Origin: Fistulifera solaris
Lineage: Eukaryota
DNA: 64,000 nt
Reading direction: 5' to 3'
Assembly (NCBI GenBank): GCA_030295235.1
Contig: AP026128.1
Coordinates: 620,001 to 684,000, forward strand
The notes under the pieces were generated by a model, which was given only the letters and a program-made list of their open reading frames with translations, searched no databases and was not told the DNA's origin. A program made the translations under genes and the position numbers. Below are positions 6,048 to 43,816 of this stretch, in pieces (the first letter of the stretch is position 1; each line of letters starts with the position of its first letter).

Positions 6048-6552
6048 ATAGAAAGTCTGGGAGTGTGATACTTTTACGTGTTCAGAAAATATGTGGGAGA
6101 GTGTTCTCGCATGGTTCTCGCACGTACCCAGAAAATGTGGGAGTGTGTTGTGTGCACGTACCCAGAAAAAGTGGGAGTGTGGTATTTGCACTTACCCAGA
6201 AAATGTGGGCGAGTGTTATTTGCACGTACCCAGAAAATGTGGGTGTGTGTTGTTTATACGTACCCAGAAAATGTGGGGGTGTGTTGTTTATACGTACCCA
6301 GAAAATGTGGGCGTGTTTTGTTTGCACATACCCAGAAAATGTGGGGATCTGTTGTTTGCACTTACCCAGAGAATGTGGGAGTGTGTTGTTTCACTTACTA
6401 AGAAAATGTGGGAGTGTGTTGTTTATACGTACCCAGAAACGAAAATGTGGGGGTGTGTTGTTTGCAAGTAGCCAGAAAATGTGGGTGTGTGTTAGTTGCT
6501 TGCACTTACGTAGATTACCAGGTAGTAGTACCAGGTACAGTACCCAGAAAAT
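6048..6552. repeat. 34-bp minisatellite, about 14 copies (unit GTACCCAGAAAATGTGGGGGTGTGTTGTTTGCAC)
   Basis: CAGAAAATGTGGG recurs every 34 bp; same family as 25858-26070. Confidence 0.95.
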
Positions 6553-6692
6553 TCGCGGTCATCCGCGACCGCAAGACCAAGATCCATTATTTGTTCGGTG
6601 AAAAGACTTTTGCCATTATTATTGTTCTCATTGAAGAGTATCACATCATTACTTGTCAATCTTTAAAGAATGCACCACTCGTCATTTTCATA

Positions 6693-8096
6693 ATGGCTCC
6701 CAAAAATAAGAACTTTGAAGAACTCAAGGAGCGATTGAATGCGCTGAAAACAGAACAGCGAGAACTGCAAGCGCTCTATCAAGAACGAGCCAACCAGCGC
6801 GTCGAGTATCAAAACAAAATGGCCAGTCTCAACGTCATGTTGCAAAAACGCAGTTTGGATACGATGTTAATCGAAGATGTCGTCGTTGTGACGCTCGTGG
6901 CCGAAAACAATGCGCGCGAACGGTACGCTCTCCTGCCTCCGGCACCCACGAAAACGGCCATTACGGTGGAACCCGGGCAGAAAACGAAAAGTCTCGAGGA
7001 GGCCTGTAACGTCTACCGAAGCCAAATTGAAGTATTGGAGGAAATGATTGAATACCGAAGAACATTGACAGCGACCGAACGAGATTTGGATCTTTTGTAT
7101 CGACAAGCCGTCGATGACATACTGGATATCATGGACGAGTATTGTGATGACGAGAAACTCAAAGCCGACATGATCTCGTTTGCCGCAGCTGGAACGGCTC
7201 CATGTTCTCCGCGCAAAGAGACGAAGAAGCGGACAATTAGCAGAATACTTTCGTCACCAGGAACATTCTTCTCGCCCAAGAAAGAAGCGGTAAAAGACAC
7301 CATGCAGAATGATTTGCTGCCTGCTCCCCTCTCGGTCGCGCCACCGGAAACGCCGAAACAAGCGTTTTCCCATTTCAAAGAAAACGCCGAGTTGAATGAA
7401 CTGAAATTAGCACCCCTCATGGATGTGAGCGAAAACGACGGTAGCAACAATGATGGAGACGTGTTTGTGAACACGGATCGGGACAATAAGACCGTGGGAT
7501 CGCCGGATCGGCGGAAAAAGAAAAAAGGCCAGTAAAAAAAATTGTTGAAGTAGAAGAACAGGATAATGAAAACGTTGATGAAAAGAAGACGAAGAAAAAG
7601 AAGAAAAAGAGTGAAACTGTCACGGAAGAATCAACCACACCGGGAATTCACGAGTCGTCGGAAGTAGACCAAGAAGCTGAAAGTGACGTTATAGAAAAGA
7701 AGAAAAAGAAAAAGAAGAAACCACAAGAAGTTATCGAGAATGAAATCACACTGGAGGATCCAGTTGACAGCACCAAAGTAAAAAAGAAGAAGAAGAAAGG
7801 CGGCAACGATCAATCGGAAAGTCATAGTGAAAAGCTCGAGGGCAACCGAGACATTGAAGCTTTGCCGGAAGATGTCAGCGAACCAACCGAAGCAGCTCCT
7901 GTCGAGAAAACAAAGAAAAAGACGAAGAGCAAAATCAAGGGCACGGAAGACAACAATCCACCTTCATTGGTGAACGAGGTACCTGTAGCTGACAATCGAG
8001 AGAGCCCCAAGAAGAAGAAAAAGAAAAAAGCCAAAGGACGAAGAAGAAACGGAAAGCGAACTTTCAAACGAGAAAATCAAAAAGAAAAAAGAATAA
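6693..8096 (+). CDS. Coiled-coil protein with Lys/Glu-rich low-complexity C-terminus, unknown function
   Basis: ATG at 6693 (MAPKNKNFEELKERL). Heptad-like N-terminus; K/E-rich tail broken by several A-run frameshifts. 3' end approximate. Confidence 0.6.
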
Positions 8097-8616
8097 AGAG
8101 GAGTCCAATAGTGGGAGAAAAGCTGATCTGTAATCGGGCGAATCGTGTTCACATAATATCATGGATTATGTTGACTCCCTTCAACGTACCAGTAAGCGTA
8201 GATACCGAGCTTGCTATAAAATCGTTTTGATGCGACCGCTTAAAGCAGAAGATGAAAGCATTTCATCTTTTTCATCATCAAAGATATTTCTGGCAGTATC
8301 GATCTCTTACTTTGTCACTATAAATAGCGAAGGCCGATAACTCTAGACCCTAGAGTCCTCGAACCTTCCGGGACTGAAACAGTTTGAGTCGTTTGCTTTT
8401 GGTACAGTGTACAGTTCATTTTAGAGTGGAAATTTTTCGTCTAAGTAATGTCTCTAGTGGCGAGTGTTAGAGCGCCGGCCGACCTCCATTTTTATTTGGC
8501 GGTCAATTTTTTGAAAAAGCTTGACACGTTCCTCCTCGCACCTCCTCGATCCTCGAACAAACATTTCGAGAAACTGCTATCAACGAGATCAAATCTTTTC
8601 GTGCACACTATCTGAG

Positions 8617-11007
8617 ATGGCAGAGGCTTCGAATACAAACTCTAAAGACGAGATGCCACCTGCCGCTTCGCCCAGGCGGGCTAAGCGCGTTTCTGATCGC
8701 TTACGGTTTATTGAGATAATTCGCTCGTCGTCTTTACCCGAAGACGACACTTCGAGCCTCCATGCAGGACATGATACGTATGAGTATTCATCAGAACACA
8801 GATCTCTTTTAAAAGGCTCTCTTGGACGCGACAATTCCGCGATAGCCGCAGCCGGAAGAGGGAGCATGACAGACAACGAGAGGTTAGACGACACCGTGAG
8901 AATAACAAACAGAGACGGTAAAAAAACAAAGCTGTCGATATCAGCCAGTATTTTCGAGGAAACGATGCCAAACGAGCAAACTCCGTTAAGCTGGCAAGCC
9001 CGAAATCGCATCCCAGGTGGAGCAGCCGCCAAGCTCATGATTGTCGGACCTAAAAAGACAGACGACTCAGACGACACTGGATTTAAAACCACCGATTCGC
9101 ATCCGGACACACTTTCCGTCGGAAGTGCAGGACCGATTGAGGATAAGCTGAAGGAAATCGAGTTACAAATGCGGCAGGCCAAAGAAGAATTTGAAAAAGG
9201 CAGCACCGAGAATCGCCGCTACAACCAACGCGACGACGAAGATATTTTTAGATCGCGACGAAAATATGCCAGCTCGTATTGACTGCTCTTCTACTCCGAA
9301 ATTTCTCATTCGCGGAGAAAATTTCCACGAGACTGCGGCGGCCGCAGTTCTGGCTTTGCTATCCACCAGAACACACCAATCTGTTTTCGGTAGCTACGAT
9401 GAATTGGTGTATACGTATTCGACCAACAAAAAGCCCTTGAGCCCCCGAAACAACGTTGTCATCGACAGTGCGTCCTACGAATCTCCTGAAAAACGGGATA
9501 TCGCCCAATTTGTCTTATCCGAACATACTGAGAAGAAACTGCAAAGTCTACGTACTCAAATGCGAGATCCCAACAAGACGATGACTGATTTACTGACAAA
9601 GATTGCCAGTTCCGACGATGGAGAGATGGATCTGGGATACATGGTACGAAGGAAGAATGCATGCGGTGCTTTACACACGTTGACAGCAACAAAAAAGAAC
9701 CAGCAGCCTATTTGCTGGACCTTGGGAGTTTTGACCGCGCTAACAAGTGTACTCGTAGACGGACGCGGCGCCTCGGAGACTCAGCTGAAACGTACGTTTC
9801 CGGATGATCGAATTCGGGAAGAATACAAACAAGCCCGTAACCGTGCAATTGCGGCACTGATGAACCTGTGCATGCCGAAGGAGAATCGGATTGCCATCAC
9901 GCATACTCCTGATCTGGTTCAAACCGCAATATCAATTATTCTGGAAGACGATGACGACGGTATCGCCAGGAGGGCTGTTGCGCCATTCTGGCTTATCTAG
10001 GCAAATCTTCCGAAAATCGGTTGCTGTTGGCCCAAGTACCTGGCTTACTCGACGCATTGATGAAAGTTCTCGCACCCAAAGGAGAAAATCAGTCGACGGT
10101 TGTCATCCCAGAGTGCAACTCCAGTACAAGCAACCTCAAAATGACTTCTCTATCAGCCCAGTCCATGCTGAGCTCTTCTTCGGCTGATAGCGGCGACTCG
10201 ACAATCAGCGCAGAATCGAGCTACCGAAGTTCCTTCAGCAGGGGAACAGACGAACTCGATTCCCCACCCGCATCACCACGAGCCGAAGAATACCTCTATG
10301 ATGACGGGGTAGATGATCTTCTGAAAGCAGCACGTCAGAATGCATTCGCTTTGATACTTCATTTGATTAAAGAGAAAGACAATGCTTATCATTTTGCCCG
10401 CAACGACGAATTCGTAAGGACAATGGTTGAAATTTCAAAGTTTCAAGAAAGTCCCTCGCATGTATTGGCAGTCAAAGTCCTTGCAAATCTTACCCGTCAT
10501 CGCTTGAACACCAATGCCCTTGTTTTTGAGAGACGTGTGGTCGTTTCTGCTTTGGTCCGCGCCCTTGGTTCACCCCATTCACACACCCGTGAATACGCCT
10601 GCTATGCTCTCCAGAATATCGCTCAAGACAAATCCTGCCGCCAAGAGTTAGCAACGACACCCAATTTGATCGAATCACTCTGTCAATGCACACGCCAATC
10701 GTCCGGAGAGGCCGAACGATTGGCAGCTACATCGGCATTGAAGAACATGTGCGACGAACCAGCCAATTTGATCCCGATGTCCAACACACCCGATGGTATT
10801 TCGTCGTTGATGCTTTTGACACACGACGAAGGTGTTTCGGATGTTATCCAGTATCGAGCATGCGATGCCATCTCGACATTGAGTTACTGGCTGCGAAAGA
10901 TCGCCACCAGCGGCAAGGCTTTGGATTGCAGTTTGCAAGGGACGACACCACCAGACGATCTTTTCGTACCAACTCTCCGGGTGGTGACATGGAATCAGTG
11001 GCAGTGA
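8617..11007 (+). CDS. Armadillo-repeat protein
   Basis: Three ORFs (8521-9282, 9191-10000, 10021-11007) joined by two frameshifts. ARM-like helices: AIAALMNLC, ACYALQNIAQ, ATSALKNMC. Confidence 0.75.
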
Positions 11008-11781: not shown

Positions 11782-11979
11782 GCTGTTCAAATTTGTTGCT
11801 TGTCGTCCTACGGAGTATTTGTTGTGTCTTCGCTTTCGTGTCCGTTTCTCCGGGTGAATCACAATCAAGACAACAACATCTACAATTCGATGATTTCATC
11901 TAGTAGTCCTATTAATTGATCATTTTATTGATAGGTTCTTCTATTGATCCATCATGGTTTACCATTCACTCATGATTAT

Positions 11980-12928
11980 AAGTGCGCGTTCCAGAAATTC
12001 TGGAAAATTTGATCATGAGAAGAAAGAAGCGAAAGTGCCAGTTCCAGAAATTCTGGATTTATTGGATACGTTATTATTTCTAATCATACAGAAATTCTGT
12101 GTCGGTCCAGAAATTCTGGACCACCAATTTTTGGTTCTACCGAAATGATGTGCACGCTCCAGAAACTCTGGACACGGTATTTTGGATCATAGCGAACGCA
12201 AGTGCGCGTTCTAGAACTTCTGGAAAGTGGGGTTTGATCATGAAGAAAGAAAGTGCCTGTTCCAGAAATTCTGGAATTTGGATGCGGTATTTTTAATCAT
12301 ACAGAAATTCTGTGATTGTCCAGAATTTCTGGACCACCAGTTTTCTTGATGCTACCGAAACTTTGTGCACTTTCTAGAAACTCTGGACACGGAGTTTTGG
12401 ATCTTAGCGAAAGCAAGTGCGCGTTTCAGAAATTTTGGAAAGTGTGGTTTGATCATGAAGAAAGAAAGTGCCCGTTCCAGAAATTCTGGATTTTGGATAC
12501 GGTATTATTTCTAATCATACAGAAATTCTGTGATGGTCCAGAATTTCTGGAACACCAGTTTTGTCGATCCTACAAAATATTGTGCACGTTCCTGACACTC
12601 TGGACACAGTGTTTTGGATCATAGCGAACGCAAGTGCGCGTTCCAAAACTTATGGAAAGTGTGTTTTGACTATGAAGAAAGCAAGTGCCCGTTCCAGAAA
12701 TTCCGGAATTTGGATACGGTGTTTCTAATCATACAGAAATTCTGTACTATTTTAGAAATTCTGGACCACCAATTTTTGGTCCTACCGAAATGTTGTGCAC
12801 GTTCCAGATACTCTGGATACGTTGTTTTGGATCATAGCGAACGCAAGTGAGCGTTTCAGAAATTCTGGAAATTGTGTCTTGATCACACTGTCAAAGGAAG
12901 AAAGTGCGTGTTCCAGAAATTCTGGACA
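11980..12928. repeat. Higher-order tandem repeat: about 216-bp unit x ~4.4, each with five copies of a TCCAGAA-N-TTCTGGA-type palindrome
   Basis: Units start near 11981, 12201, 12416, 12633 and 12846 with AGTGCGCGTT; about 22 palindromic cores in total. Confidence 0.92.
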
Positions 12929-13063
12929 ATAGGATTGCGCGGGACTGCATGCCGTGTGCGGTGTGACGTGGCATTTTTGCGGACGCGACAGAAAATCGCG
13001 TTGAACAAAATACAAGCCATTGCGTTGAAACGGTCCCTCAACATTTCATTCCTGCGCACAACC

Positions 13064-13683
13064 ATGAGACCGATTCAATTTTGCATTCAGTATACACCAC
13101 AGCAGTTGTTGCATCGAGGCAGCCGCCGCGCGTTCTTCACGAACACGGATCAAATGAATCGAGAAGATCCGTATCAACAGCTCGGCTTGCAATGGGGCGA
13201 CGGCGCCACGACGGCCGAAATTCGACAAGCCTATCGTCGCAAAGCCGCACAACTACACCCAGATGTCAACAAAAGGATTCACCGCAAGTGGCGTTACGTA
13301 AATTTCAAGAACTACAACGCGCGTATCAGTCACTAATGAAAATACACAGCCACGCCGTCAGCACCGAGAAGGAGGAGGAATGGAGATTTTCTGTCTGGAG
13401 GAACGGGGATCGGATCGCCACCAATCGAACGGATGTAGCGGGAGTGTTACGGAAACGACCGAAACCACCGGCGGAATTATCGTCGCGACAGCGGGGCGCA
13501 TTGTTGGGTCATCCATCGGGGACGGGGACTGTAATAAGGAACGAATATTTAGGAGACGGACAAGCAGCACCTTCGTCGTCGGTAGGGAGAGGTCAAAGCA
13601 AGTGGGTGAAACCGAAAGAATTTGTTCCCTGGGACGGAAAAGTGGTGGTATCTGCTAGCGAACGAGTCAAGAGCAAAAAGTAG
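13064..13683 (+). CDS. Small DnaJ (J-domain) protein, possibly mitochondrial
   Basis: DPYQQLGL...EIRQAYRRKAAQLHPD; continues as KFQELQRAYQSL after an A-run frameshift near 13270. Basic N-terminal extension. Confidence 0.8.
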
Positions 13684-14340
13684 ACTAGCGGAAAGTTTTG
13701 AACAGGCACGGGATGTCCGTGGCTACGAACTTTTGAACTTTTTTGAACGAAAAAACGATTTTTCATAAATCGTTGCAATGAGTCGTCAAGGCTCATCATG
13801 CTCGGCACCAGTAGAGAAGGAACTGGTGCTCTGACTTTCCGCGCAATTTGATTCGGTAGCTTGGCGTTTTGAATGTCTATTGCTGACAGGCATGTTTCAG
13901 GAAACAAAGTGTAGTTTTATTTTTGCTTTCTTTCCACCAACGATTGGCTTATTAGGATCGAAACATAGAAACAAATTTGTTGACAAAGACCAAGCCGCCT
14001 TAGTCGTCGGCCTACAATAAAGTAGCTGCATCGCCTTACCGGTACTTGTACTATCCACTTAAATCTACTTAATGAATAGACTGTGTTAAACATAAAACTT
14101 CCTAAGGTACTGTTTGCTACTATAAACACTGCGCCAGCGTTTGGCATGCAATATTTTTCACGCAACAACATAACTAAACTCGGCGTATTATTTACCGAAA
14201 CGCTTGTTGTGTTGGATCACAATCTGCAGTATTAAACAAACCCATCCACTCATCAACCTTGAAGGTATTGTCTCTCCTAGCCAAGCAAGAAAGCCAATAC
14301 TGCTGGCGGCGTATCGCTTTTACTAGAATGATAGCCGACG

Positions 14341-17040: not shown

Positions 17041-17401
17041 ACGCAACTAATAATCATTATTTACATTAGCAATTACGGAGTACCTGGTAGCAACGATTCT
17101 GAACGCTTTACTGACACAGGAAAAGCAATTGTAGCTTATATAAATCAAGCAGAACGATCGTAGTTTGCTGGCTCAAAAATCTTGACTCATGATTGGATTG
17201 CATTCGTGGTTTGCTGGAACCTACACTGTACTCGATAGTAAAGTTAGAAAACAATTATTCTCGAAACGTTCTAACGCAACTGATCATCATTTGCATTACC
17301 AACGATGCTAAAGGCATGACTAACACAGGAAAAGCAAATTGAAGCTTACATAAATCAAGCAGAACGATCGTAGTTTGCTGGCTTTGAAAAATCTTGACTC
17401 A
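17041..17401. repeat. Degenerate direct duplication, period about 210-230 bp
   Basis: ACACAGGAAAAGCAA...TAAATCAAGCAGAACGATCGTAGTTTGCTGGCT...AATCTTGACTCA occurs at about 17115-17190 and 17323-17401. Confidence 0.85.
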
Positions 17402-17716
17402 ATTTTTTTTAGTTGTGGCTTTCTTAAACCTACACTTTTGGTCTATAGTACATTTTTCGACGCACATGAATAAATAATACGAGTACTCCGTACAAGTAAT
17501 GAATGACGAATGAATGAATGAACATGAAAATGAAGGCCAAGAGAAATGAAGATGGACGTCATGGATTATATTTCTCCAAGTCTTCATCGAAGGTATTTCT
17601 AAAGCCGTTTGCTTTCCCTTTCCGTAGCTCGCGCCGGCAGAAAGGTTACAAAAAATTCACGACGAGGCCGACAACAACGCATTCGACAAAAACCCTCCGA
17701 CTGGACGGGATTTTCA

Positions 17717-23315: not shown

Positions 23316-24203
23316 ATGCACCCCATCGAAGAAGCCTTCGGCAAAGGCTGTTCACTCTACAAAGACGTGCTCCAATGCCCCAAAGATGCCTCCGCGGCGC
23401 AATTGCGGAAAGCGTATTACCGGGCCGCCTTGCTCTATCATCCCGACAAGAATCCCGATGGCCATAAACAATTTCAAGCCATTTCCATGGCGTATCAAAT
23501 TCTGAAAGATAAAGATATGAGAGATGCGTACGATGAATCGGGAGAAATTCCAGATACACCCGACGATGATGATGACATGGGAACTTCCGATAAAGGCAAT
23601 CCGTGGAAAGAGTACTTTGATCGCATCTTTGGTAAGGTGACTACGTCCGATATTGACGCTTTTTCGGCGAAATACAAATGCAGTGATGAAGAGAAAAAGG
23701 ATGTTTTGCAGCAATTCGTACAGCGCCAAGGAGATTTGCTGCAAATGCTCGAATTTGTCATGTTGAGTTCCGAAAAAGATGCCGTGCGGTGGGTGGAAGA
23801 TTATCTCCGACCGGCTCTGGAAGCCAACGAGATTCCGACCGAATATCAATTGACTATGGAGAAGACACTGGAAAAAGTACAAAAGAAACTTAGTAAGCAG
23901 AAGGATTCTGAGGAACAAGAAGACGATGATGATGATGACGCCACCGAGTCGGAAGACGATTTGCCTCCCGTTTTGCGCAAACCCAAACGCACTGTCAAAA
24001 AGGGGAAACCGACGCAAACCAAAAAGAAAAAGAACGACGACATGACCGATTTGATTGCACAAATTCAAAACAAGCGGCGCGGTGGAAACAGCCTTCTCCA
24101 GAGTATAGCGTCACGCTACGGTGTCGACGATCAGGATCCCTTGAACGACGAGGAATTTACCAAAGTTCAGGCGCGTGTCGAGTCAAAGCGAAAAAAGAAG
24201 TAA
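23316..24203 (+). CDS. DNAJC9: DnaJ subfamily C member 9-like co-chaperone
   Basis: J-domain (LRKAYYRAALLYHPDKN...FQAISMAYQIL), then WKEYFDRIFGKVT..DIDAF...YKCSDEEKKD. Confidence 0.85.
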   Translation: MHPIEEAFGKGCSLYKDVLQCPKDASAAQLRKAYYRAALLYHPDKNPDGHKQFQAISMAYQILKDKDMRDAYDESGEIPDTPDDDDDMGTSDKGNPWKEYFDRIFGKVTTSDIDAFSAKYKCSDEEKKDVLQQFVQRQGDLLQMLEFVMLSSEKDAVRWVEDYLRPALEANEIPTEYQLTMEKTLEKVQKKLSKQKDSEEQEDDDDDDATESEDDLPPVLRKPKRTVKKGKPTQTKKKKNDDMTDLIAQIQNKRRGGNSLLQSIASRYGVDDQDPLNDEEFTKVQARVESKRKKK

Positions 24204-26070: not shown

Positions 26071-26202
26071 CACATAAAAATTTGGGATACCAGTAGGTCG
26101 ATCACAAGAGCCCGACAAATAATAAAATAATACTGGTAGTAGCCGACAACTAAAATAAAAAAACAGCAGACAGCCAGTTATTGAAAAAACAGGACGTTTA
26201 GA

Positions 26203-28239: not shown

Positions 28240-28325
28240 ACAGCAGCCAAAACGCGAACTAAGGTATGACGTTAAACAAGCTAATGCCAGTAATGTACTA
28301 AATATTGTTCGATTTTCGTAGTGGC

Positions 28326-30254: not shown

Positions 30255-30763
30255 CTTGAAGAATGATGCGAGAAAAAAAAAAAGCGAAGAAGCCAGCCCT
30301 TGACCACAAAAAAAAAGAATGGGTGCAAATTTTCACGAAGATTGGCCAGGTCAATCTTCCGCCCAAAATTCCGACATGAGTGGTGCTCGGACAATGCGGA
30401 AAAGGTAAGGTATAGTACAAAGTAGAACCGAGTACGTCACGGCGTCCGACTTGCGGACAGAAACAGAAGCAGATGTCACATTCGTGAACCGTTCTTCGCT
30501 TCGTTCCCCCATGCAAGTACAACCCATAAAAAATACTCCGTATACGGAGTACTCCGTATAAGGTTATCAGTCTTGTACAGTATCTGCACGTCCGTCGTCG
30601 GCTCCTTCTTCCACGCAATAAATAATAACGTTGTGTATTGATGTCCAATCGACGTCCATTTTTAAAAATGTATTGGCACAAAAGAAGATCATGTCGGAGA
30701 AAGCGACGATGGCATTGGTGCACAATACCTGGTAGACGCCAAAAATGGTGTAAACGAGAAACT

Positions 30764-31465
30764 CCGGGTTCCCCTGCAGAGATAAATTTCCTACGGCGGC
30801 TACGTGAAATACGCGTAGACATTCGAAGTGTTGTATTATTTTACTGTTTCATGTATCACAATCCAATCAAGGTAGATAATTGCTTAATTGTACGCATGAG
30901 CGATGTTGGGCAAAGTATTGTTGACATTGGTGTCCAAAAGACGTGAAAAAGGTGTGATTGAAATTGCACAATTTCCGGGTGCCCCCTCTGTCGATAAATT
31001 TCCCTACGGGAGCTACGTGAAACTACGTAGACATTCGAAGCGTTGTTACATTCGTTCCATCAACGTTTTGTTTTCAACTCGATGACACCTATTGCTTCCC
31101 GATACGAAGCAAGTACAGTGCGCAAGATAACGTTGACATCTGTGCACTTTAAATCCAAGCTTTGGATGATGGTGAAAAAACAATATCCGGGTACCCCTGC
31201 AGAGATAAATTTCCTACGGCGGCCACGTGAAATACGTGTAGACATTTGAAGCGTTGTATTCTTCAACTGTAACATGTTTCACAGTCCAATCAAGGTAGAT
31301 CATTGTTTCATGGCACGCATAAGTGATGTTGGGCAAAGTATTTTTGGCACTGATGTCCAAAACAAGCGAAAAATGGTGTGATCGAAATTAGACAATATCC
31401 GCGTTCTCCTCTGTCGATAAATTTCCCATCGGGAGCTACGTGAAACTACGTAGACATTCGAAGCA
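30764..31465. repeat. Array of four ~70-bp conserved cores at ~212-bp spacing (A-B-A-B)
   Basis: CCGGGT.CCCC....GATAAATTTCC(C)TACGG..GCTACGTGAAA..CGTAGACATTCGAAG at about 30764, 30976, 31188 and 31399. Confidence 0.9.
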
Positions 31466-32008
31466 TTTTATTTCTTGTTCTTTGTTTGTTTTGTTGTCTG
31501 AATACGCTCAAGTTTAATGAAATATATTCACTGTTAGTGATTGGAATGTTTTTCTTGGTCAAGCTGGCTGCAGGGCGGATTTACTTCATGTCGGTTCAGT
31601 AAACAAGGCGCTATCATTCCACTGATGCAAAGAGTACCATATCAGTTTCTGTCTGTCCGTCGTCCGCTCATTCGTTCGCCCAAGGAATGACGTGTGTGAT
31701 CCGTCGCAATGATCTTTTCGACAGCCTCCACCTTGATGATGATGATGATGATGATGTGTTTCGTTTTTATCCCTCCGATCGAAATCCTTTGACGCGGATA
31801 CCCGATAGCAATCGTGTAATTGTTGCTGTTGTTAAAAAAGGATTACTTTTCTTATATAAAGAACCGATTGGGCTTGCCGTTGGATCAATCGCTGATCTTT
31901 TTCGAACGTCCCTCCTTTGCCTTCATTGAAAGGAAATCGCACCTCCTTTCCTGCGATCCATCGGGCTTCCTGTTTCCTATAAAATCTCGTCTGTCCTCCA
32001 TTCCTTGA

Positions 32009-33825
<1,817 letters not shown>

Positions 33826-34054
33826 AGCAATAATTAGATAATGATTCGCTTTCAATTTTCCTGCTACCTGCGATTGTAAGCGTGACTCATGTTCCCAAAA
33901 AGTGAAGCTTGAGGTGTGATGCCTTCAATCTATTTTCTGCCTTGGAAGGATGAGGGCATGTACAGTTATTTGTTTGATCCAAGAATGCGCATAAGACAGA
34001 GTAGCGGTTTTAGCTAGTATCGGCTTATTACAATATTTATATTTCACATAGCGC

Positions 34055-34747
34055 TCACGCCGCTGGAGCTGTTGGTGCTGACTTGAAGAACAATAATAGC
34101 ACGTTTCCAATGAAACCGTCTAGGTTACCAATGGAATCGTGTTCTTCGTAGGCATTGAAAGAAATTATAGTTGATAGCAGCTGCTCAAAGCAACTTCGAG
34201 ATTTCACTTCATCTCCAAGAGACAAATGAATCTGTCCCAAGTTGTTGGAGATGGCCATTGATTGCAATGGCGAGATAGCGAGCTCCTCGTTTATTTGAAT
34301 CGAGCAGACGAGCTCATATAGAGATTTAGCCTTGAGGAACTTTCCTTTACAGTTGGCATCCTGGATGGCGATGAGATGGTGTGCAAGCGCAATATTGTAT
34401 AGTATTACAAAGGAGAGCTTGACGTTATCTCGGAAGGATTGCATGTCTTGCTGATGGGCTGAAATGTACATTGGTGAAGTGAACGTGTACCCTTCTACTC
34501 CCAAGCTTGAAAGTAAAGTGCATCCGCACTCCGGAGGGCTTTGGAGGAAAACGCCAGGAGGTGACTCGTTATCGTCATCCTCGATGGTATCCTTGCTAGT
34601 TTCCTCCAGCCGTATCATTTCTAACTTGATGAGACTCAAGGCTTTTGATAGAGCTCTGAGTGCCTGGTCGTACCGTCCCTTTGAGATCATGTGTATACCA
34701 ACATTGTTTAAGAGAACAGGGTCGTTGCTTTCAGCGACCAAACTCAT
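34055..34747 (-). CDS. TPR-like protein of a family common in diatoms
   Basis: LNNVGIHMISKGRYDQA, ILYNIALAHH, SNNLGQIH; C-terminal APAA. Confidence 0.75.
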   Translation of the reverse strand: MSLVAESNDPVLLNNVGIHMISKGRYDQALRALSKALSLIKLEMIRLEETSKDTIEDDDNESPPGVFLQSPPECGCTLLSSLGVEGYTFTSPMYISAHQQDMQSFRDNVKLSFVILYNIALAHHLIAIQDANCKGKFLKAKSLYELVCSIQINEELAISPLQSMAISNNLGQIHLSLGDEVKSRSCFEQLLSTIISFNAYEEHDSIGNLDGFIGNVLLLFFKSAPTAPAA

Positions 34748-35972
34748 GGTGTATAGTCTGGTGGTGTCGATCGATTGTGGGATTATGGAGCAACAGTTGG
34801 TATCCTTTGTTTCGTTTGTGGTGTTATTTTTGTCGACCTCAAATAATACCAAAGGTGAAGCTTGAATTCGGTTTTCGGTTGTCGGGGTTCCTCGCAGCAG
34901 AAAAGCCTAAAACCTGAATACAAATACAGAACACGAAACACGAATACCTCATTCCTTACTCCTTACTCAATTCTATAATGTTTTCGCAATAGCGAACACG
35001 AGCTTGAAACCCGAAGGACTAAAGGGCTATGTAATTGTTAATTGTTACTGTAGTGTTTTGAGTTTTATTGCTTTCCGATTTGCACCAAATTGATACGCGA
35101 CACAATGGAACTTGAAGTTAAATGATATGGCTCATTTGATAGATAGTAGAATAATGTAGGTTATTTGTGAGTTTACTTACTACAGGACCAGTTAACCAAT
35201 CATCCTAACGGCTAACGGCAGAATGCGAATACAGCCTTATCAGGAAGCATTTTCAGTTTTCAGTGTTCTCGGATTCTGCGCGTTCTCAACCCGTTCGCCA
35301 CTCTTCAGCTGCCTTAAACCCTCGAATTTCAATGTTCTTTGTTCTTCGCTTTCAGTTTTCTATCAAATGTTTCGGTGACGTTTGTGGAAACATCTCCCTA
35401 CGTCCCAATCAGATAATAGATTAGGAAGCTAGTCACTTGGAGTCACCTTGAGGACGATGACATCCGTATCTGACATCCAAATAGCCCTTAGAGCTATTAA
35501 AGTCTAGATTCAAGACCTCAACGCTAAACGCTGAACTTGGATCTTGGATGAGCTACGCGGAATAATGGAGTAATTGTGCGATAATAGGGAGATAAATATG
35601 CTAGAGAGCCTAAGACTCCAGGCGGAGAATCACGAGGCTCCTTGTTCCCGATTGCTAGGAAGAGCGAAGAGGTAAGATGTGCAAGATATAAAGCTTCCGG
35701 AACTTTGCGGCTGGATAAGACACGGCAACACAATGGGCTCAGCAAGTGAAAACTTGGGTGTCCTCGAAGAGTGCACTGAACATAAAGTCTCTTTACAAGA
35801 TTCTCTAAAACTAAAAAACACGCCGTCTATTGAGCTTAGTTTTTACCAACACTGGATCACACGATGCATACAGCCTACAAGTGGGACAATAATTGTAAAT
35901 GATGTTGCCTTTGCGGCGATCATACCCGGCGAGTGCAGTTGTACATTGAGAGTAGCGCGAAAATTAGCAACG

Positions 35973-36317
35973 TCAATCGAAATAGGCATCTTCATCAACC
36001 TCACCATCCCATTCGAATTTCTCTGTCTTGTTGTCTACTTGCTCCTTTGAGTCTAATTTCTCTTCTTTCTGTTTTAGCCACGGGGTATCATCGCCGCTAC
36101 TGTCGAGAAAAGACGGGTCACCACCCATGGCTTCAATTTCTTCTTCTTCGCTGGCGAAGAAGTCACTTCCCTCCACAAAGGTGAAAGAACCCTTGAAGTT
36201 TCCTTTATCAGAAGCAGAGTATAACTTTGTGGCGACTAGAAAAGAAGGCTTTCGTGATGAAGGCACGAACGCATCGAGACCAGAAAGTAAAACAAAAAAG
36301 GAAAGCAAGTTGATCAT
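35973..36317 (-). CDS. Small acidic protein, probably plastid-targeted
   Basis: MINLLSFFVLLSGLDA|FVP bipartite signal; acidic C-terminus EWDGEVDEDAYFD. Confidence 0.75.
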   Translation of the reverse strand: MINLLSFFVLLSGLDAFVPSSRKPSFLVATKLYSASDKGNFKGSFTFVEGSDFFASEEEEIEAMGGDPSFLDSSGDDTPWLKQKEEKLDSKEQVDNKTEKFEWDGEVDEDAYFD

Positions 36318-36729
36318 CGTCAATCAATCTGGATTGATTAGTGACCTAATTGGAATCTAGCTACGGACCGGAGTTGAAGCTCCTTGACTGTGAAGTGTAT
36401 TTATCCCTTCTGGCGATTGGCGGATGGTTCCCCATGGTGATGATCACGTGCGTGTTTTGTTTTTGTTTTTTTTTGTTTTGGCGGCCGAAAGGAAGCTCGC
36501 CGGTGCGATATGAAATGTTACAGAGACTGAGTTAGTGTAGGAAGTCAAGTACTCCGGGAAAAAGTTGAGGCGGCGCGGACGCGGACGAGGTGCAAAAATC
36601 CTCCGCGACCGCCGCGCACGAAGATTTTTGTTTTTGTTGCACATAATTGAACGCGAACCTCTTACCACTCTTCGTGATTTCAGAGTCAGCTTGTCATCGA
36701 CGATACTCTCAATTGGAAACAGAGCAGTA

Positions 36730-37086
36730 ATGGAGACTGAGCAGGACGGAAGTGCGGCTCGAAACAATGAAAATCGGATGGTTTATTCGGTTATTTGGAT
36801 CATTCTACTTTTCCTCGTGGTTTGGCCTCTGGGATGGTTCCTTTCGCCAATCTGGATCGTCTTGTTGGCCGGAGAAGCCTTCCTTCCTCCAGGTACGTGA
36901 GAGCAACGCTTTTACTTTGAGTAGCAAATACTTTCTTCGGTCGTAAATAATCTAATATTATCTTCTGATATTCATGACGCAGTGCGCGAGCTGAACAGGT
37001 TCATCGAAAAGCTCTTGACATGGCCGCGAACAATGGGATACGCTATTCAAGAAGGAAGGACTGAATTCCCGACACCTCTAGATTAA
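36730..37086 (+). CDS. Small membrane protein (~88 aa)
   Basis: VYSVIWIILLFLVVWPLGWFLSPIWIVLL; intron 36893-36982 leads to VRELNRFIEKLLTWPR...TPLD*. Confidence 0.7.
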
Positions 37087-37440
37087 ACAAATATAATTAG
37101 AGAGGAAGAAAGGGAGGTATCCAATGGACGATACTTACTCGACTTGTCGAGTATAGATTTTTCAAAGAGAACATCTTGTAATCGCTCCTAATAGAAAGTC
37201 TACTTTGAAGGTATTTTTGTATGCACCTCTCCGTTGGCAATAGTTTGATTTCTGACCGGGGAGCGCGATTTGCCTCCTCAGATGACGCGCCTGTTTCCCG
37301 AGTACCTGGTAGGCCGATAACGAACAACGGCACTTTACCTACATGAAGGAATGACTATCAGAATTAGGATTTCTATTCCGTGGCGACATAAAGGTTGCTT
37401 GTTCCAATAGACTACTCGAGCCGAGGGGATTGCGATGTAT

Positions 37441-38115
37441 GAATTACACAATATTCGGGTTCCCCATCTGTCGATAAATTTCCCTACCGGGCCTACGTGA
37501 AATGTGCATACACATTCGCATCAGTTCATCTATTGCCTTTTCTATGTTTCGACGTTCCAATAAAAATGTCAAATCCTGCTAAGGGAATCTATGAAGGTAC
37601 GCGGAGGACTGTTCTGATAATATTTGTCGTTATTGGACCCAAGAGCGGATGAGGCCAAATTCGAAAAGTTCCTAATGCTACCTACATCGCTAAAACTCTA
37701 CGGGGCCTACGTGAAATTCACGTAGACATTCGATGCGTTGTATCTTCGCTACTTTTACCGTTTAGTGCCATTAGTGATGTTGGTTGATGGTTAAAATTAG
37801 GATGGCAGTCGAAAAGGCCCAAAAAAAGGATCATGTCGAATTACACAATATCCGGGTGCCCCCTCTGTCGATAAATTTCCCTACCTGGCCTACGTGAAAT
37901 GTACGTAGACATTCGCATCAGTTCATCTATTGCCTTTTCTATGTTTTGACGTTCCAATAATCTATGACGGTATGCGGAGGATGGTTCTGATGATAATATT
38001 TGTCGCTATCGGATCCGAGAATTGATGAGGTCAATTTCGCGCTAGTTCCGAATGCTACCTACATCGATAAAATTCCTACTGGGTCTACGTGAATTCTACG
38101 TAGACATTTGTAGCG
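37441..38115. repeat. Second array of the ~70-bp-core family (four cores, ~200-bp spacing, A-B-A-B)
   Basis: GATAAATTTCCCTAC..GCCTACGTGAAAT..ACGTAGACATTCG cores at about 37455, 37675, 37850 and 38050. Confidence 0.88.
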
Positions 38116-38198
38116 TCAACACTCTGATAAACATCCGGGTTTCTTTGTGCAAACAACGAATTATTTTTTGTTGCTGGGATGTTTCGGAACATTGACTA

Positions 38199-39239
38199 AT
38201 GGGCATTAAAACAGAAGATATGAAACAAATCCAGCAGAAGTTGTTCACTAAAGAAGATCCATATCATGTTCATAAAACACTTGGACTGGTTGCGCTCTCT
38301 TCCTACATCTATCGCATTTCAAATTTTGGAGCGAGCGACATGGGCTTTTCTCCTACGAAAGAAAGCAGCGATGACTTCTACGTAATCACGCTACTCACAC
38401 TTCTTGTGCACGTTTGCTTGAACATTAGTAGTTTTGAATTTCATATACCCGCAAAACGGATTCAAAGTGACGGTGGCCGTATTTGGCCGCAATACCGATT
38501 TCATTCGCTGGTCTTCTCTTGTCGGGGGTTACTCTGCATCGCGCTGAATGCTTTCTACTACAATGCACTCAAGTCATCGCAGTCACCTCTTGGGTCTTCT
38601 TTTACTCTTCCCCATGGAAACTACTTGATTGTAATCGCCACTATGATCATAGGCGACATTGCCTCCAACTACTGGGTCCAGTACCCCTCCAACTCGATTC
38701 GCGATCTGAAAGCTTCTCCCGTGATCAAGTATTACTTCTCGGTCATGCAATTTCTGGCGACGGGTGTTTCTCTGGTAGGACTTCGCCGGTGTTCTTTGCA
38801 TTATTACATGGTCATGGTCGTCCAGGTTACAGCCTTTCTCATGACACTACGGAGAAAAAACTTGGTGTCTCATGAAACGAATGTGATTCTATATGCTTTG
38901 CTGCTGGCTGGAGGATTCGTAGTGGGAATTTATGAAACGTATGTTTGGGATCCTGCGCAAGAGCTATTGTGGATCTCCGCTTTTCTTGGAATGACTGCTG
39001 CTGTGCTACGAATCCTTTGTGGCATGAACAAATACGTGATTTGGACTATGCTACATATCGTAAATTGCTATTGCTTCCTTCCGAGTATTCAAAGTCAAGA
39101 AGCGAATCTACATTCCATGATCCTGCTAAGTCTTGTTCGGATCCGATGGCTCGGCGTCAGTGCAACAATGATTATGGTCCTAGGCGGATTATGGAGGAGT
39201 TATTTTTCTTCGACACAGATTAAAAGCATCTCTGATTAG
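38199..39239 (+). CDS. Multi-pass membrane protein, unknown function
   Basis: Intact 346-aa ORF with about 8 TM segments; TKEDPYHVHKTLG, IWPQYRFHSLVFS and AFLMTLRRKNL look like conserved motifs. Confidence 0.8.
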   Translation: MGIKTEDMKQIQQKLFTKEDPYHVHKTLGLVALSSYIYRISNFGASDMGFSPTKESSDDFYVITLLTLLVHVCLNISSFEFHIPAKRIQSDGGRIWPQYRFHSLVFSCRGLLCIALNAFYYNALKSSQSPLGSSFTLPHGNYLIVIATMIIGDIASNYWVQYPSNSIRDLKASPVIKYYFSVMQFLATGVSLVGLRRCSLHYYMVMVVQVTAFLMTLRRKNLVSHETNVILYALLLAGGFVVGIYETYVWDPAQELLWISAFLGMTAAVLRILCGMNKYVIWTMLHIVNCYCFLPSIQSQEANLHSMILLSLVRIRWLGVSATMIMVLGGLWRSYFSSTQIKSISD

Positions 39240-40068
39240 CTTCAAAGTTGCCGAATATCAAACTTGGTTTCGTTTGATAAACGATTCTATCGAGGCCTAC
39301 AAACAGTTGGTCTCCTTGTTGCCAACGTCTGCTGCAGTCTCGGTCAGAGTGATACATGGCTCTAGTGTTTACTTCACACATTCTAGCGTGGCTTAAACCC
39401 ACTGCAACCTTCGGATATAACCTGCTATTGGGCGATAAGTCCTTTTACGGTCCATTCGCGTAGAAAAGAGTTTTTTCTCGTAGTTTCTCTGCAGTGATAG
39501 CCTGCCCAGCAATGATTTAATTCGTGACTGAAATGTCTTCACTTTGGCTGTATACTCCGAGTAGTAAATACAAAAAATTACGATCTCCACGGCCTTTATA
39601 GATAGGATAGTATCAATTCTTGCAAACATACCTCTTCTAAAGTAATGGAATTATATTGAAACCCAATAATAGGTTTACATACTACATACTACGAGAACGA
39701 ACGATGATAATAAGTTATCATTGTGACTCGCGGTCGCGGAAGAAAATGACTCATGACTGAAATGCAGTCGTGGCAAAGTTGAGATACACTTCGGCGATAC
39801 AGCAAAACTCGTCATCTCTAACTCTAACCCTCGTCTGCCGAAACACAACGGGATAAATTTATAAAAAAAAACGCAGGGACACGCCATTATTATTTCATCG
39901 TTTCGGACAATGCCAAAGGCCAAGGAGTAGAGAGAGTATTAGTTCTTCTTTGCTATTCCAACTGTGCTTGTTATCTCTTCTCTTCTCTCGCCAAGAGCAG
40001 TGGGGACGATTCATGCGGGGCGTATCATTCGTTTCAATTAGCCCTGTATTTTTTCTCTTCATGCGTTC

Positions 40069-41145
40069 ATGAGAGACCGCCGTGTCATGTCGATGGCTTT
40101 GGTAAAAGCCCGTGAAAGATTTTTGCAGCTCGTCACAGTTCTCTTACTGCTACTGCACTTTGTTCGATGCTCATGGGCCTGGCAACCAGAATCGATTCCG
40201 TCTCGCCACCACCACAACGTCCTACTCTCGCTCATTCGATCCGTCGGTTGGGAGCCGGAAACGGTGGAAGTACGACACCTCGACCAAGAGAAATCAGCAT
40301 TTTGTAACACTGTTTATCGTTTGACCACTTCCTGTGAGAACAGTGACACGACAATCACCATTGCCAAAATATTCTCGCCATTGGCCCTCGAGCGGATGAC
40401 ACATTCCGTCGGGGCGATGGATTCGTATGTGGCAGCACAGGGACTCGCCCCTCGTATTCTGGCCACTAGCAACGACGGCTTACTCATGGAATTCTGTGAA
40501 AGTTACTCAACCGACAGGAGCTTTCGGTGCATGGACGAACGGAACGACACTCTTTGTGCGATTGCCTTGGCGAAATTGCACTCGTTGCCTCCGCTCGTGC
40601 CAGTCAACTCACAGATAGATGAGAACATGCTCTGGAGATCGTGTCGGATACTGATGATGCATGTAAACGAAAGCTGGCTATGTCGTACCAGTGCTCGAAG
40701 TGACGGTTGGACCAAAGAGATGCTTGATACCGAAATGAGACTCCAACAATTTCTGCTTTCTCGGAAGGCCTTAGTGGAAGTGCCTATAGCACATGGTGAT
40801 TGTAAACCATCCAATTTAATTTGTCAACAAGAACGAGCCTTCTTTATTGATCTTGAACTGTGCGGACGCAATTATCGATCATACGACCTCGCGAAATTGC
40901 TACGGAATGATGGAGACCCTACCTTGATGAATAGTTTGTCCCGTCGGATACGCTTTCTCTCTGCCTATGCAGAGCAAATCGATACCGATATTGATCAGCT
41001 TCAGTTCGAGCTGAATGAGATTTTGCCTTTGACATGGTTAGAGGCGGCCATCTTTTTCGCTGCGATGGAATCCGTTGATCCAATGAACAAAGACAAATGG
41101 AACTCTTTGGCAGCATCTCGGTTACGAAGCTATGAAACGTGTTGA
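40069..41145 (+). CDS. Choline/ethanolamine kinase-like phosphotransferase
   Basis: LAKLHSL; Brenner motif HGDCKPSNL; FIDLELCGRNYRSYDLA. Confidence 0.8.
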   Translation: MRDRRVMSMALVKARERFLQLVTVLLLLLHFVRCSWAWQPESIPSRHHHNVLLSLIRSVGWEPETVEVRHLDQEKSAFCNTVYRLTTSCENSDTTITIAKIFSPLALERMTHSVGAMDSYVAAQGLAPRILATSNDGLLMEFCESYSTDRSFRCMDERNDTLCAIALAKLHSLPPLVPVNSQIDENMLWRSCRILMMHVNESWLCRTSARSDGWTKEMLDTEMRLQQFLLSRKALVEVPIAHGDCKPSNLICQQERAFFIDLELCGRNYRSYDLAKLLRNDGDPTLMNSLSRRIRFLSAYAEQIDTDIDQLQFELNEILPLTWLEAAIFFAAMESVDPMNKDKWNSLAASRLRSYETC

Positions 41146-41319
41146 CGCTCAATACGGTAAGAGCTGCTATGAGACTGTTTAATAAAACAAAGGTCACTGC
41201 ATCGCCCCGCGCTTGCTATTATTCCACTTAGAAAAAGGTAGCTCCTCGCACATTTAAAATCTACCATTAAAATTTGACTCAGCCCCTATAGTCCGCTTCT
41301 AAATCACTTTTTATGATTA

Positions 41320-41983
41320 TCATACGCAACAACATGAATGCTCCTCGTTAATCGGGTAATTCTCTGGAGTCATGATTCCGTGTTGAACTTCTATCACGAA
41401 AAAGTAGTGGGGGTAAGCGAAAAACGCAGAATATACCAAACCAGCAATGTTAAGAGTCAAAATCGAAAATAAACATTCCACAACGTAAACCGCGAAGCAG
41501 GCCCCGACCATGAATATCTAGGAAGAGAGGTAAATGGAGGATAACATTTGAGAACAATGGGTTGGGGAAGACAGACTCCCAACTTTGAAGCAAACTTACG
41601 TCGAATCGAAAAGCTCCGTACATTCCCATAAAACTGAATAAAATTTTCGCTGCAGTCACTGCTAGAACAACAATGATACCGGCGTCGTCGAAGCCAACAA
41701 TTGCGTCTTCTAAATCATCGTCGGTCGCCCCTACTGAACTCGCTCCAGCAATCGTAAGGATCGACAAAAATCCAAGGGCAAGTAACGAGGCATTGACAAT
41801 ATTGACGATTATCACAGCTCGTCGCATATCGCAACAGCCACCGCAGAACTTGTGACCCTGCTTCATGCCGATGCGGTGTGGATAAACGCGCATTCCTTCG
41901 TCATATTGATATTCCTCTTTCGCTGTGGACGCCAGCGAAAAATCAGTGTCTGCGGCAGCTAATTGATCCTGGTCATAAGCCAT
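41320..41983 (-). CDS. Small multi-pass membrane protein
   Basis: GHKFCGGCCDMRRAVIIVNIV and a C-terminal YP..EEHSCCCV; two exons with an intron at about 41519-41600. Confidence 0.75.
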
Positions 41984-42684
41984 TCTTTATTATAATCGAT
42001 TGTGTTTATGAATGCATTCAGTTTTAGAAACAAAAGGATCACAACTTATCAATTTTGTTCGTTGTTATCGGCGTTTTATTTAGCGACCCGTGCAATATCC
42101 TCTATAGAGGAAGAAGTAGAGAGCGAGTCGAGACGACGTTCGCAACTATATGGAAACGTATCAGTGCGACTCCTTAGCGATACGCGCTTCCTTTGTTGTT
42201 TCTCGTGACTGACTCGTGACTCGTGAAATGACGTTTGGCATGTTGCCTGCTGGCTGTCGGTTAAGAAGTACTATTTGCATCTATTCTAAATTTAACTTTC
42301 TGGATTGCGTAATTGTTGGCATTACTTTTTTGTGTCAAGTTGTTCGTTCTAATGATTGTTCTTTATTGTCCAGACATAGGACATAGGACATCGGAAATAT
42401 TAGAATAAAGATTGTTGACTGGGAAAATGGAAAATACCAGGTACAGTACTCGGAACTCGGAACTCAGAACAATAACTTGCCCTACACTATATTAGAAAGT
42501 ACACCATTTTGCTACCTTAGTACTATATACTATATAACATATAATCAGTAGTAGGGACCACAGAATACCGCCGAACACATAGAATAAGAGCCAAGGCTAT
42601 TGGAAAGGTCATTTACAGTCATAGTCATTGACAACATTTCAACGAAAACAAAAGTATCTTTCGATCTTTCGTTTTCCGGGGAAG

Positions 42685-42753
42685 GACGTTAAAATTCTGC
42701 CTCTCAGTACAAGTTTCTACGTAGAGCCTACGGCGAGGCAGAATTTTAACGTC
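42685..42753. repeat. Perfect 19-bp inverted repeat with 31-nt loop
   Basis: GACGTTAAAATTCTGCCTC (42685-42703) and GAGGCAGAATTTTAACGTC (42735-42753). Confidence 0.9.
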
Positions 42754-42860
42754 GTTTGCGCAATGCAACATGTACGCGACAAGCGACACCTTCAAGCCGC
42801 AATGATTTCTCATAAACTGAACGCGAGGTCAAAGTATCAAAGCAACGAGTAATCATCACC

Positions 42861-43454
42861 ATGGGCATTAACAAGAACACCCTCTTTGTCTGGGATGGAA
42901 TCCTTGAAGTCCACGATGCGTCTCAGCGGGGCGTCTACGACGTGGTTTGGCACGGAACCTTGGTGGCGAACGAATTCTCTCCCGATGCTACGAGAGTAGA
43001 AGCGCCGAAGCGCAACGCTTTCAAAGAGTTTTGCGATTCGGATCTTCTCTTTCGAGTAACCGGTCAGGCGAGACCTGTTGATCTCGTGATGAATGAAGAC
43101 AAGTTCAAGTCTTATCGCATTCGTCTCACCGAAGGACCCGGTTGGGACCTTGACGGTCAGAAGCACCATGACATTGACCACGAGGTCATCAGCAGCTTGC
43201 AATGGCAAGGTAGCTCTGATTCTCGCAAGAGCCTCGTCTTTGCGACCGGTGGTGACTCTTACGGCAAATTCATCTCCGTGGGATGGATGCGACCTGGCAA
43301 CCGCATCACCTTGGCCCGCCGTTATGTCAGCGACAATCGCGCCGATTGGTCCGCAGAAACCTTGCGCAAGGAAACGCTGAAGTTAATCTATGACGATGAA
43401 GAAGAGGAATGCGTCATGCCTCCGTGGCAGTGCAGCGTCTTCAGTGCTCATTAA
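42861..43454 (+). CDS. Hypothetical protein (197 aa)
   Basis: Intact ORF with C/G-biased third positions; G.FISVGWMRPGNRITLARRY motif. Confidence 0.8.
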   Translation: MGINKNTLFVWDGILEVHDASQRGVYDVVWHGTLVANEFSPDATRVEAPKRNAFKEFCDSDLLFRVTGQARPVDLVMNEDKFKSYRIRLTEGPGWDLDGQKHHDIDHEVISSLQWQGSSDSRKSLVFATGGDSYGKFISVGWMRPGNRITLARRYVSDNRADWSAETLRKETLKLIYDDEEEECVMPPWQCSVFSAH

Positions 43455-43816
43455 GCAGCGCTGTTCGTCGGCCTCGGTCCTTCGCCAGTCAATAGTTTGT
43501 AATTGAAATAGAACGTTTTTCAAAAAAATGAAAGTCTGAGATATCAATGCATGACCACATTAGAGGAGTCGTTAGGGTTTCGTGAAGCAGGATAAGATAC
43601 CAGGTACGGAGTTACTTATGAGCATCCGACATTCTTCGTTTACCTTAGTTCGACCTACCATTCGGGTCAAATGAGTTTCTGAGTACTATAAAATATATAG
43701 GACACGATTACTATATACATAAGTGTGTTTCTACGACAGAAATCGTATACCGTTTGAAGCGACACCTTGCCTTTCCCACTGAACACATTTTTTCTTCACG
43801 ACATTATCGCGCAAAA

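Follow-up and report, generated by a model that had tools for sequence, protein, structure and literature searches.

Exact TA-bounded words in non-coding DNA of the diatom Fistulifera solaris as possible excision scars of TA-targeting transposons

Is a palindromic word that recurs, letter for letter, outside the genes of a diatom a site read by a protein, or is it what remains after transposons have left? The question is raised by a stretch of 64,000 nucleotides of Fistulifera solaris (contig AP026128.1, positions 620,001 to 684,000; in what follows, the window), gene-dense eukaryotic DNA in which the nine-base word TACCAGGTA/TACCTGGTA (TACCWGGTA) recurs. A preliminary description had read this word as the excision footprint of a mariner-like gene that lies in the same window. 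From the analysis reported here, a somewhat different hypothesis may be put forward: TACCWGGTA and a second word, TACTCCGTA/TACGGAGTA, may be scars of TA-targeting cut-and-paste transposons, an origin to which we give nearly, though not quite, even confidence. The exactness of the word, the second word, the TA-shared chains and the TA indel between paralogous repeats are new here; the word itself has already been published.

A recurrent exact word and its coding context

A scan of the window for TACCWGGTA gave seven matches, reproducing exactly all the positions that had been claimed for TACCAGGTA:

6516 to 6524, plus strand: first TACCAGGTA copy of a local pair, 13 bases from the second
6529 to 6537, plus strand: second copy of the pair, continuing as TACCAGGTACAGTA, a chain with TA-CAG-TA
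17081 to 17089, minus strand: TACCAGGTA copy; on the plus strand, the chain TACGGAGTACCTGGTA at 17074
30726 to 30734, minus strand: TACCAGGTA copy bordering a dispersed repeat array
37303 to 37311, minus strand: TACCAGGTA copy, as TACCAGGTACTCGG, with flanks that have no paralogue in the window
42435 to 42443, plus strand: TACCAGGTA copy continuing as TACCAGGTACAGTACTCGG and holding the TACCAGGTACAGTA chain
43598 to 43606, plus strand: TACCAGGTA copy continuing as TACCAGGTACGGAGTTA, 219 bases upstream of the start codon (ATG) of the transposase-like gene

In 100 dinucleotide-preserving shuffles the word occurred 0.13 times on average and never more than once, so that no shuffle reached the seven copies of the window. 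An order-0 Markov model trained on the whole window expects 0.51 copies, in agreement with the earlier estimate of about 0.5 at uniform composition, and enrichment over a Markov background, which had been set beforehand as a test, is present, orders 1–4 expecting 0.12–0.17. The expectation rises to 0.6 at order 5 and to 2.65 at order 6, a model already fitted to TACCWGGTA itself; models trained on the 24,636 bases outside open reading frames (ORFs) expect 0.06–0.11. Since 6516 and 6529 belong to one local duplication, lying where a 34-base-pair (34-bp) satellite ends, the number of independent loci is six. In an unbiased ranking of all 9-mers, carried out with 4,028 self-similar bases masked, TACCWGGTA was first, with six unmasked copies where 0.12 were expected (Poisson p 4e-9).

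In form, TACCWGGTA is a perfect odd-centred palindrome, preserved without an excess of near variants: true one-mismatch sites number only four, against a total of 5.08 matches in shuffled sequence. The eight-base variant TACCGGTA was present at both places reported for it. Its two copies exceed the 0.16 expected, and one shuffle in 100 reaches two; taken on its own, this excess is weak.

14037 to 14044, unstranded: TACCGGTA variant, chained as TACCGGTACTTGTA
58658 to 58665, unstranded: TACCGGTA variant, in the context TACCGGTAC

All seven copies of TACCWGGTA fell in the non-ORF mask and none in the ORF mask. With ORFs of at least 150 residues, the earlier statement that every copy is intergenic holds for six of the seven, which lie outside such ORFs (62.5% of the window); site 30726 is inside an ORF of 212 residues (30184–30822, minus strand). 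This ORF found no match in Pfam and overlaps a dispersed non-coding repeat, and it is probably not coding. All sites of the word are thus outside credible coding sequence. Most copies lie between divergently oriented genes, according to our reading of the ORF map, and the distance to the next ATG ranges from about 156 to more than 560 bases. Rfam gave no match at its gathering score and no transfer RNA (tRNA) occurs in the window, hence the motif has no association there with structured RNA or tRNA.

A published motif search places the word in a wider context. In Nomaguchi et al. 2018 (PMC5935921), the search covered the first 500 bp upstream of the start sites predicted for homoeologous genes, as far as the available parts of that paper describe the procedure. 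Its Table S4 (Additional file 2) lists as 'Fso_l biased' the motifs MCCTGGTA (p 6.9e-99), CCWGGTA (p 3.7e-95), ACCTGGTA (p 7.4e-95), CWGGTAS (p 3.3e-94), TACHRGTA (p 4.3e-75), which covers TACCGGTA, CAAGTAY (p 1.9e-60) and RCTMCGTA (p 6.6e-15), which covers ACTCCGTA; the table has no factor match for any of them. For TABASTA of the same table, the available text reports higher expression of the homoeologue carrying it. Beyond this, that text suggests in general terms that motifs of this kind may influence the expression of homoeologues, and does not discuss the nature of the word. Our own literature search for the literal word returned, in main texts, only primers and unrelated sequences.

The subgenome to which the window belongs bears on this bias. 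A search by exact sequence recovered three of its proteins in public collections, and one of the clusters includes GAX11530.1 'FisN_22Lh222' from F. solaris, an allodiploid diatom, and the alignment of sequencing runs to the window gave 628 GC-to-AT against 557 AT-to-GC changes. From the 22L locus tag and these changes, two weak indications, the window is probably the Fso_h partner of the '22L' chromosome. A bias between two close subgenomes would fit a lineage-specific mutational source better than conserved regulation.

A second word, TA-sharing chains and paralogous loci

The second exact word, TACTCCGTA/TACGGAGTA, took rank 3 among the 9-mers, with six copies against 0.28 expected when repeats were masked; ranks 2 and 4 went to an A-run word and a trinucleotide-repeat word. 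The complex words at the top of the list (TACCWGGTA and TACGGAGTA) both begin and end with TA, and, given the unbiased ranking, these bounds are not an artefact of selection. TACCWGGTA and TACTCCGTA are discrete words and not a degenerate consensus: although TACNNNGTA has 21 sites against 5.29 expected, 13 of them are the two exact words, leaving 8 against 5.29, and TACNNNNGTA is at chance (6 sites against 5.41). Both recurrent cores are exactly five bases long, so that with one TA the repeating unit is seven bases.

11809 to 11817, minus strand: second exact word, TACTCCGTA
17478 to 17492, plus strand: chain TACGAGTACTCCGTA, then CAAGTA; second word at 17484
30534 to 30558, plus strand: TACTCCGTATACGGAGTACTCCGTA, in which the second word occurs three times, its copies abutting or overlapping and alternating in orientation

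The words are joined into chains in which neighbouring units share a TA. Eight chains of the form TAC..GTAC..GTA were counted, against means of 0.42 and 0.9 in Markov simulations of orders 3 and 5, respectively (60 simulations per order; maximum, 4). TACAGTA is chained to TACCWGGTA at 6529 and 42435. The second word follows CCAGG in either orientation, as TACCAGGTACTCCGTA at 17081 and as TACCAGGTACGGAGTTA at 43598, and the two are therefore independent modules rather than one longer repeat. Three loci share more than nine bases, namely 17081 (TACCAGGTACTCCG), 37303 (TACCAGGTACTCGG) and 42435 (the same plus an inserted AGTAC). Beyond 10–16 bases the loci are no longer similar, and the modules occur in varying order and orientation; for the sequences flanking 37303, 42435 and 43598, no paralogue was found elsewhere in the window.

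Paralogous repeats allow some of these sites to be compared with a relative. A repeat of about 210 bp is present as unit A (from 17037) and unit B (from 17262), 83% identical. Where unit B reads ..TTTGCAT-TA-CCAACGAT.., unit A reads ..TTTACAT-TA-GCAAT-TA-CGGAG-TA-CCTGG-TA-GCAACGAT.., and their optimal pairwise alignment has a gap of 21 bases, three blocks of five bases plus TA, anchored at one TA, over which the position of the gap can slide. This placement comes from the optimal pairwise alignment; MAFFT places the gap differently, and its placement was not relied on. Among 15 indels of at least three bases in six paralogue alignments, the 21-base TA-chain is the sole indel of its type. A unit C was considered as a third allele and set aside, its alignment being too weak (scores of 22.5 against A and 8.5 against B; A against B, 67).

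17067 to 17087, plus strand: 21-base insert TAGCAAT TACGGAG TACCTGG, in repeat unit A and not in B
17297 to 17298, plus strand: single TA, the 'empty site' of sister unit B
6509 to 6542, plus strand: 34-base TA-delimited block, CGTAGAT TA CCAGG TA G TA G TA CCAGG TA CAG TA, in the end unit of the satellite

In the last unit of the 34-bp satellite (6120–6545), a block of 34 bases that holds the copies at 6516 and 6529 lies at the TA of the GTACCC box, and it is absent from the other listed satellite units. Environmental contigs from four of eight listed sequencing runs, aligned to 24000–43999 at 80% likeness, cover further sites. None of the best-supported variants in these alignments falls on a motif site, which speaks neither for nor against the presence of the words in the homoeologue or in the environmental strain. 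At 30726, the match to a paralogous contig from an environmental strain that is nearly identical breaks off at the word's first TA; a contig of 225 bases spans the site at 42435 with zero differences; site 43598 lies 70 bases beyond a contig end that bears an A run at 43528.

Two side observations concern the same repeats. The chains at 17074 and 17484 face each other, as TA-CGGAGTAC ... GTACTCCG-TA, 415 bases apart; this is an inverted match of 10 bases enclosing units A and B, too short for a terminal repeat. The 34-bp satellite (GCACGTACCCAGAAAATGTGGG...) forms two arrays, 6120–6493 and 25857–26061, both intergenic; the second array ends in the unit GTATACCC, which has an extra TA. Summed contig depth there is several-fold above that of neighbouring bins, and further copies of the satellite probably exist elsewhere.

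Possible origins of the words

On the favoured reading, excision scars would arise in three steps. A transposon of Tc1/mariner/PlantMar type would enter a TA in open promoter DNA, duplicating the TA; the element would later excise, and repair would retain a few terminal bases between both TAs; the new TAs could then be hit again, giving chains such as TA-CCAGG-TA-CAG-TA. Different element families would leave different fixed cores (CCWGG, CTCCG, CAG, CAAG), and differing element histories in the two parental species would account for the published subgenome bias. By analogy with Sleeping Beauty, ends of the form CCAG...CTGG, a 4-base stagger and 3-base annealing with a central mismatch would yield CC(A/T)GG; alternatively, retention of 4+1 or 3+2 bases would give a five-base core. 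A transposase is the putative maker of the scars, and the cores are candidate element termini. Of the preliminary description, the idea of a TA-bounded scar gains from the exact TA-bounded words, the chains, the one 21-base/TA indel between paralogues and the subgenome bias; what it loses is the resident mariner as donor.

Several points weigh against excision scars. Only one paralogue case is clean, and two copies cannot separate insertion from deletion. The 34-base block in the satellite has the length of one unit and is identical to it at 14 of 34 positions (hand count), so that a diverged satellite unit is an arguable alternative to a block of scars. For the contig at 30726, aligned by hand, an alignment with a 7-base indel and another one are about equally good, and 43598, compared with an inverted partial copy in a weak alignment, shows substitutions and no indel at the motif. 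No TA-flanked element with CCAG(G) or CTCC(G) ends was found within the 64-kilobase (kb) window, no TACCA...TGGTA pair with at least 20 of 30 matching bases was found within 7 kb, and a general search of the window for TA-flanked repeats gave nothing convincing. The series of other footprint forms that had been predicted is at chance within the window: TACCATA/TATGGTA is seen 3 times against 3.9 expected, TACCATGGTA 0 times, TACCAGTA 3 times against 1.5 and, in this count, TACCGGTA 2 times against 0.46. In the available parts of PMC7827188, those Sleeping Beauty and mariner enzymes that have been studied introduce their nicks three bases inside the element, and the footprint consists of the 3' overhangs between the duplicated TAs; the uniform core of five bases differs from such a cut and would require 4+1 retention or else a stagger of four bases with an overlap of three. 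By our own reasoning, CTCCG cannot form by annealing of identical overhangs. Finally, a perfect palindrome in promoters also suits a dimeric DNA-binding protein.

A related candidate, in which the motif is the tip of a paired terminal repeat of a transposon or a miniature inverted-repeat transposable element (MITE), was rejected: no inverted partner copy was found in the window, and the flanks of 37303, 42435 and 43598 are not multi-copy there.

The explanation that survives best beside excision scars is a cis-regulatory word, which we consider somewhat unlikely. TACCWGGTA would be the palindromic site of a dimeric diatom-specific protein, TACTCCGTA the site of a second factor, and the chains composite elements. 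Such a site would account for the perfect odd-centred symmetry and the exact copies, for their non-coding position, mostly between divergent genes on the ORF map, and, as far as the available parts of PMC5935921 go, for the recovery of the motif genome-wide in 500-bp upstream regions and for the higher expression of the homoeologue that carries TABASTA. However, Table S4 of that paper gives no factor match. Near variants, usual for binding sites, are not in excess here, with four one-mismatch sites and 8 residual sites of TACNNNGTA against 5.29. The spacing from the ATG is not fixed, lying between about 156 and more than 560 bases, and the extreme subgenome bias (p about 1e-95 to 1e-99) would be unexpected if shared factors read the site. 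In the clean paralogue case, moreover, the word lies inside an inserted block and not in substituted sequence. A literature search returned no protein-binding data for TACCWGGTA. Factors of SBP type (GTAC-core) were considered and dropped; as far as we know, diatoms have no such factor family. If the words are binding sites after all, TACCWGGTA is a strong candidate for a new diatom promoter element.

Excision scars have also to be weighed against remnants of another kind, an origin that we regard as unlikely. The words might be solo tips of short terminal repeats of about 16–20 bases (TACCAGGTACTCSG...) from a decayed element family, or short palindromic insertions made at breaks by template switching or hairpin repair, with no TA-targeting transposase involved. 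The more than nine bases shared by 17081, 37303 and 42435 and the zigzag of perfect palindromes at 30534–30558 speak for an origin of this kind. Yet the likeness of the three loci stops after 10–16 bases, the modules change order and orientation, and no paired inverted copy was found in the window; template switching copies local sequence, whereas here the same words stand at unlinked loci with unrelated flanks.

The original version, in which the words are footprints of the mariner-like gene itself, with ends TA-CCA...TGG-TA, is largely refuted, and we take it to be very improbable.

43817 to 45554, plus strand: the 'resident mariner', two ORFs (43817–44443 and 44649–45554), with a DDE-type region in the second

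In its favour stands the copy at 43598, 219 bases upstream of the gene. In the DDE-type region, 39 residues separate the second and third acidic residues (DD39D spacing; catalytic residues assigned by motif), and plant DD39D mariners are reported, in the available parts of PMC9632168, to leave 1–4 bases. Against this, the claimed ends found no confirmation. Beyond the transposase ORF, TGGTA occurs once, at 45728, and when the 30 bases within the two supposed ends are compared as inverted repeats, 11 of 30 positions agree; the best alignment of the flanks as terminal inverted repeats scores 25, where the shuffled mean is 25.3. The match to Pfam DDE_3 (E 0.0028) falls short of the threshold, with 17.9 bits where 28.6 are required, and a sequence search of the PDB found no relative of the protein. 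It has 207 environmental relatives at E of at most 0.001, of which one matches at 99% and the next are at most 60% identical, so that the gene does not belong to a multi-copy active family. The 3-base forms TACCATA/TATGGTA, as given above, are at chance. As far as is visible, the gene is no demonstrable source of CCA...TGG ends, and the assignment of the words to it, as first made, falls with these results.

The surroundings of this gene show some further features. A piece of 41 bases (43647–43687) recurs inverted at 51527–51567 with 93% identity, and one of 130 bases (45614–45743) recurs inverted at 51343–51472 with 100% identity, that is, 5.6–7.8 kb from the flanks of the transposase-like gene. 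In the inverted copy just 54 bases separate the two pieces; the 1.9-kb gene segment is thus present in one copy and missing from the other. Two short hairpins with CGTTAGG loops lie in the 130-base piece, for which Rfam has no match. Frameshifted fragments of a Ulp1/C48 protease lie at 46108–46691 and 48003–48986, both on the minus strand (Pfam E 0.0013 and 0.019, sub-threshold), near an ORF that shows a weak CCHC knuckle and carries 95-base repeats within it; the region beside the transposase-like gene is probably a decayed mobile-element region.

Chance or base composition, which only the order-6 Markov model trained on the word itself brings near the count (2.65), is negligible as an explanation in view of the shuffles (0 of 100 reaching seven; maximum, 1), the top rank of the 9-mer and its independent genome-wide recovery (PMC5935921).

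Other repeats in the window and known systems

The window holds other repeats that are distinct from the words. At 11980–12926 there is a 215-bp tandem array of 4.4 copies, studded with the palindromes CCAGAAATTCTGG/CCAGAATTTCTGG, the last copy of which enters an ORF with a DnaJ domain (12851–13683); its inverted GAA/TTC arrangement recalls heat-shock elements, but with a spacing of one base, not two. A module of about 70 bp, CCGGGT..GTCGATAAATTTCCCTAC..CTACGTGAAA.TACGTAGACATTCG, forms intergenic arrays at 30745–31470 and 37440–38110, with a summed contig depth of 640–2990 against about 20–45 in ordinary bins. At 42682–42757 lies a 75-bp hairpin element, the 28-base arms of which are 89% complementary, with sharp loose contig ends on both sides in three runs and a depth of about 8,500–11,000 at 42725; it is a very abundant short palindromic element without TA duplication. 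About 30 bases at 39746–39777, bounded on both sides by the loose ends of numerous contigs in a bin of raised depth, are a small high-copy piece.

Scans of sequence collections with these and neighbouring sequences brought little. A metagenome search with a neighbouring protein of 197 residues gave no confirmed related locus, and when metagenomes were scanned with 18 bases taken from the 70-bp module, the 11 loci obtained were all chance matches, lacking both the second box of the module and the motif. Two high-copy words of the window, searched in prokaryote and viral collections, gave 0 matches, five single chance matches in bacterial contigs, and 0 viral matches.

Compared with the published motifs of F. 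solaris (PMC5935921), the word is the same, in the same organism and within 500 bp upstream of genes, and its companions TACHRGTA, RCTMCGTA and CAAGTAY are listed there as well. That work treats them as possible promoter motifs behind expression bias, with no factor, origin or anatomy, whereas TA bounds, exactness, chaining and a TA-anchored indel are described here; the word is there commoner in Fso_l, and our window is probably Fso_h. A wider proposal, which we regard as possible but doubtful, is that the leading F. solaris motifs CCWGGTA, RCTMCGTA, TACHRGTA and perhaps TABASTA (which includes TACAGTA) are chains of excision scars at promoter insertion hotspots, that their subgenome bias is a fossil of transposon activity before hybridisation, and that the five-base cores reflect an undescribed 4–5-base stagger in diatom transposases of Tc1/mariner type. 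Should the words be scars, motif discovery in compact algal genomes can take transposon footprints for regulatory code, and the link published for such motifs with the expression bias of homoeologues in this allopolyploid, oil-producing diatom would need to be re-read. Scars would then be usable as subgenome-specific markers of transposon activity and insertion hotspots, and the cores would hint at a transposase with an unusual cut.

A literature search for the ends or footprints of diatom mariners returned nothing on diatoms, and the comparison is therefore with systems of other organisms. The likeness to the footprints of Sleeping Beauty and of Tc1/mariner elements lies in the plan itself: a TA, a few terminal bases and a second TA, with one dominant form expected. 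The canonical Sleeping Beauty footprint has the form TAC(A/T)GTA. A palindrome with a free central base corresponds to two identical overhangs annealed with one mismatch, as in that footprint; the core in the window differs from it in having five bases rather than three, and the second core, CTCCG, is non-palindromic. Plant DD39D elements, for their part, are described as ending in CTCC... In the DD39D spacing of the transposase, plant DD39D mariners and Stowaway MITEs (Osmar5, Ppmar2) resemble the gene in the window. According to the available parts of PMC9632168, PMC3660474 and PMC4561436, the footprints that they leave are diverse, whereas in the window one form dominates.

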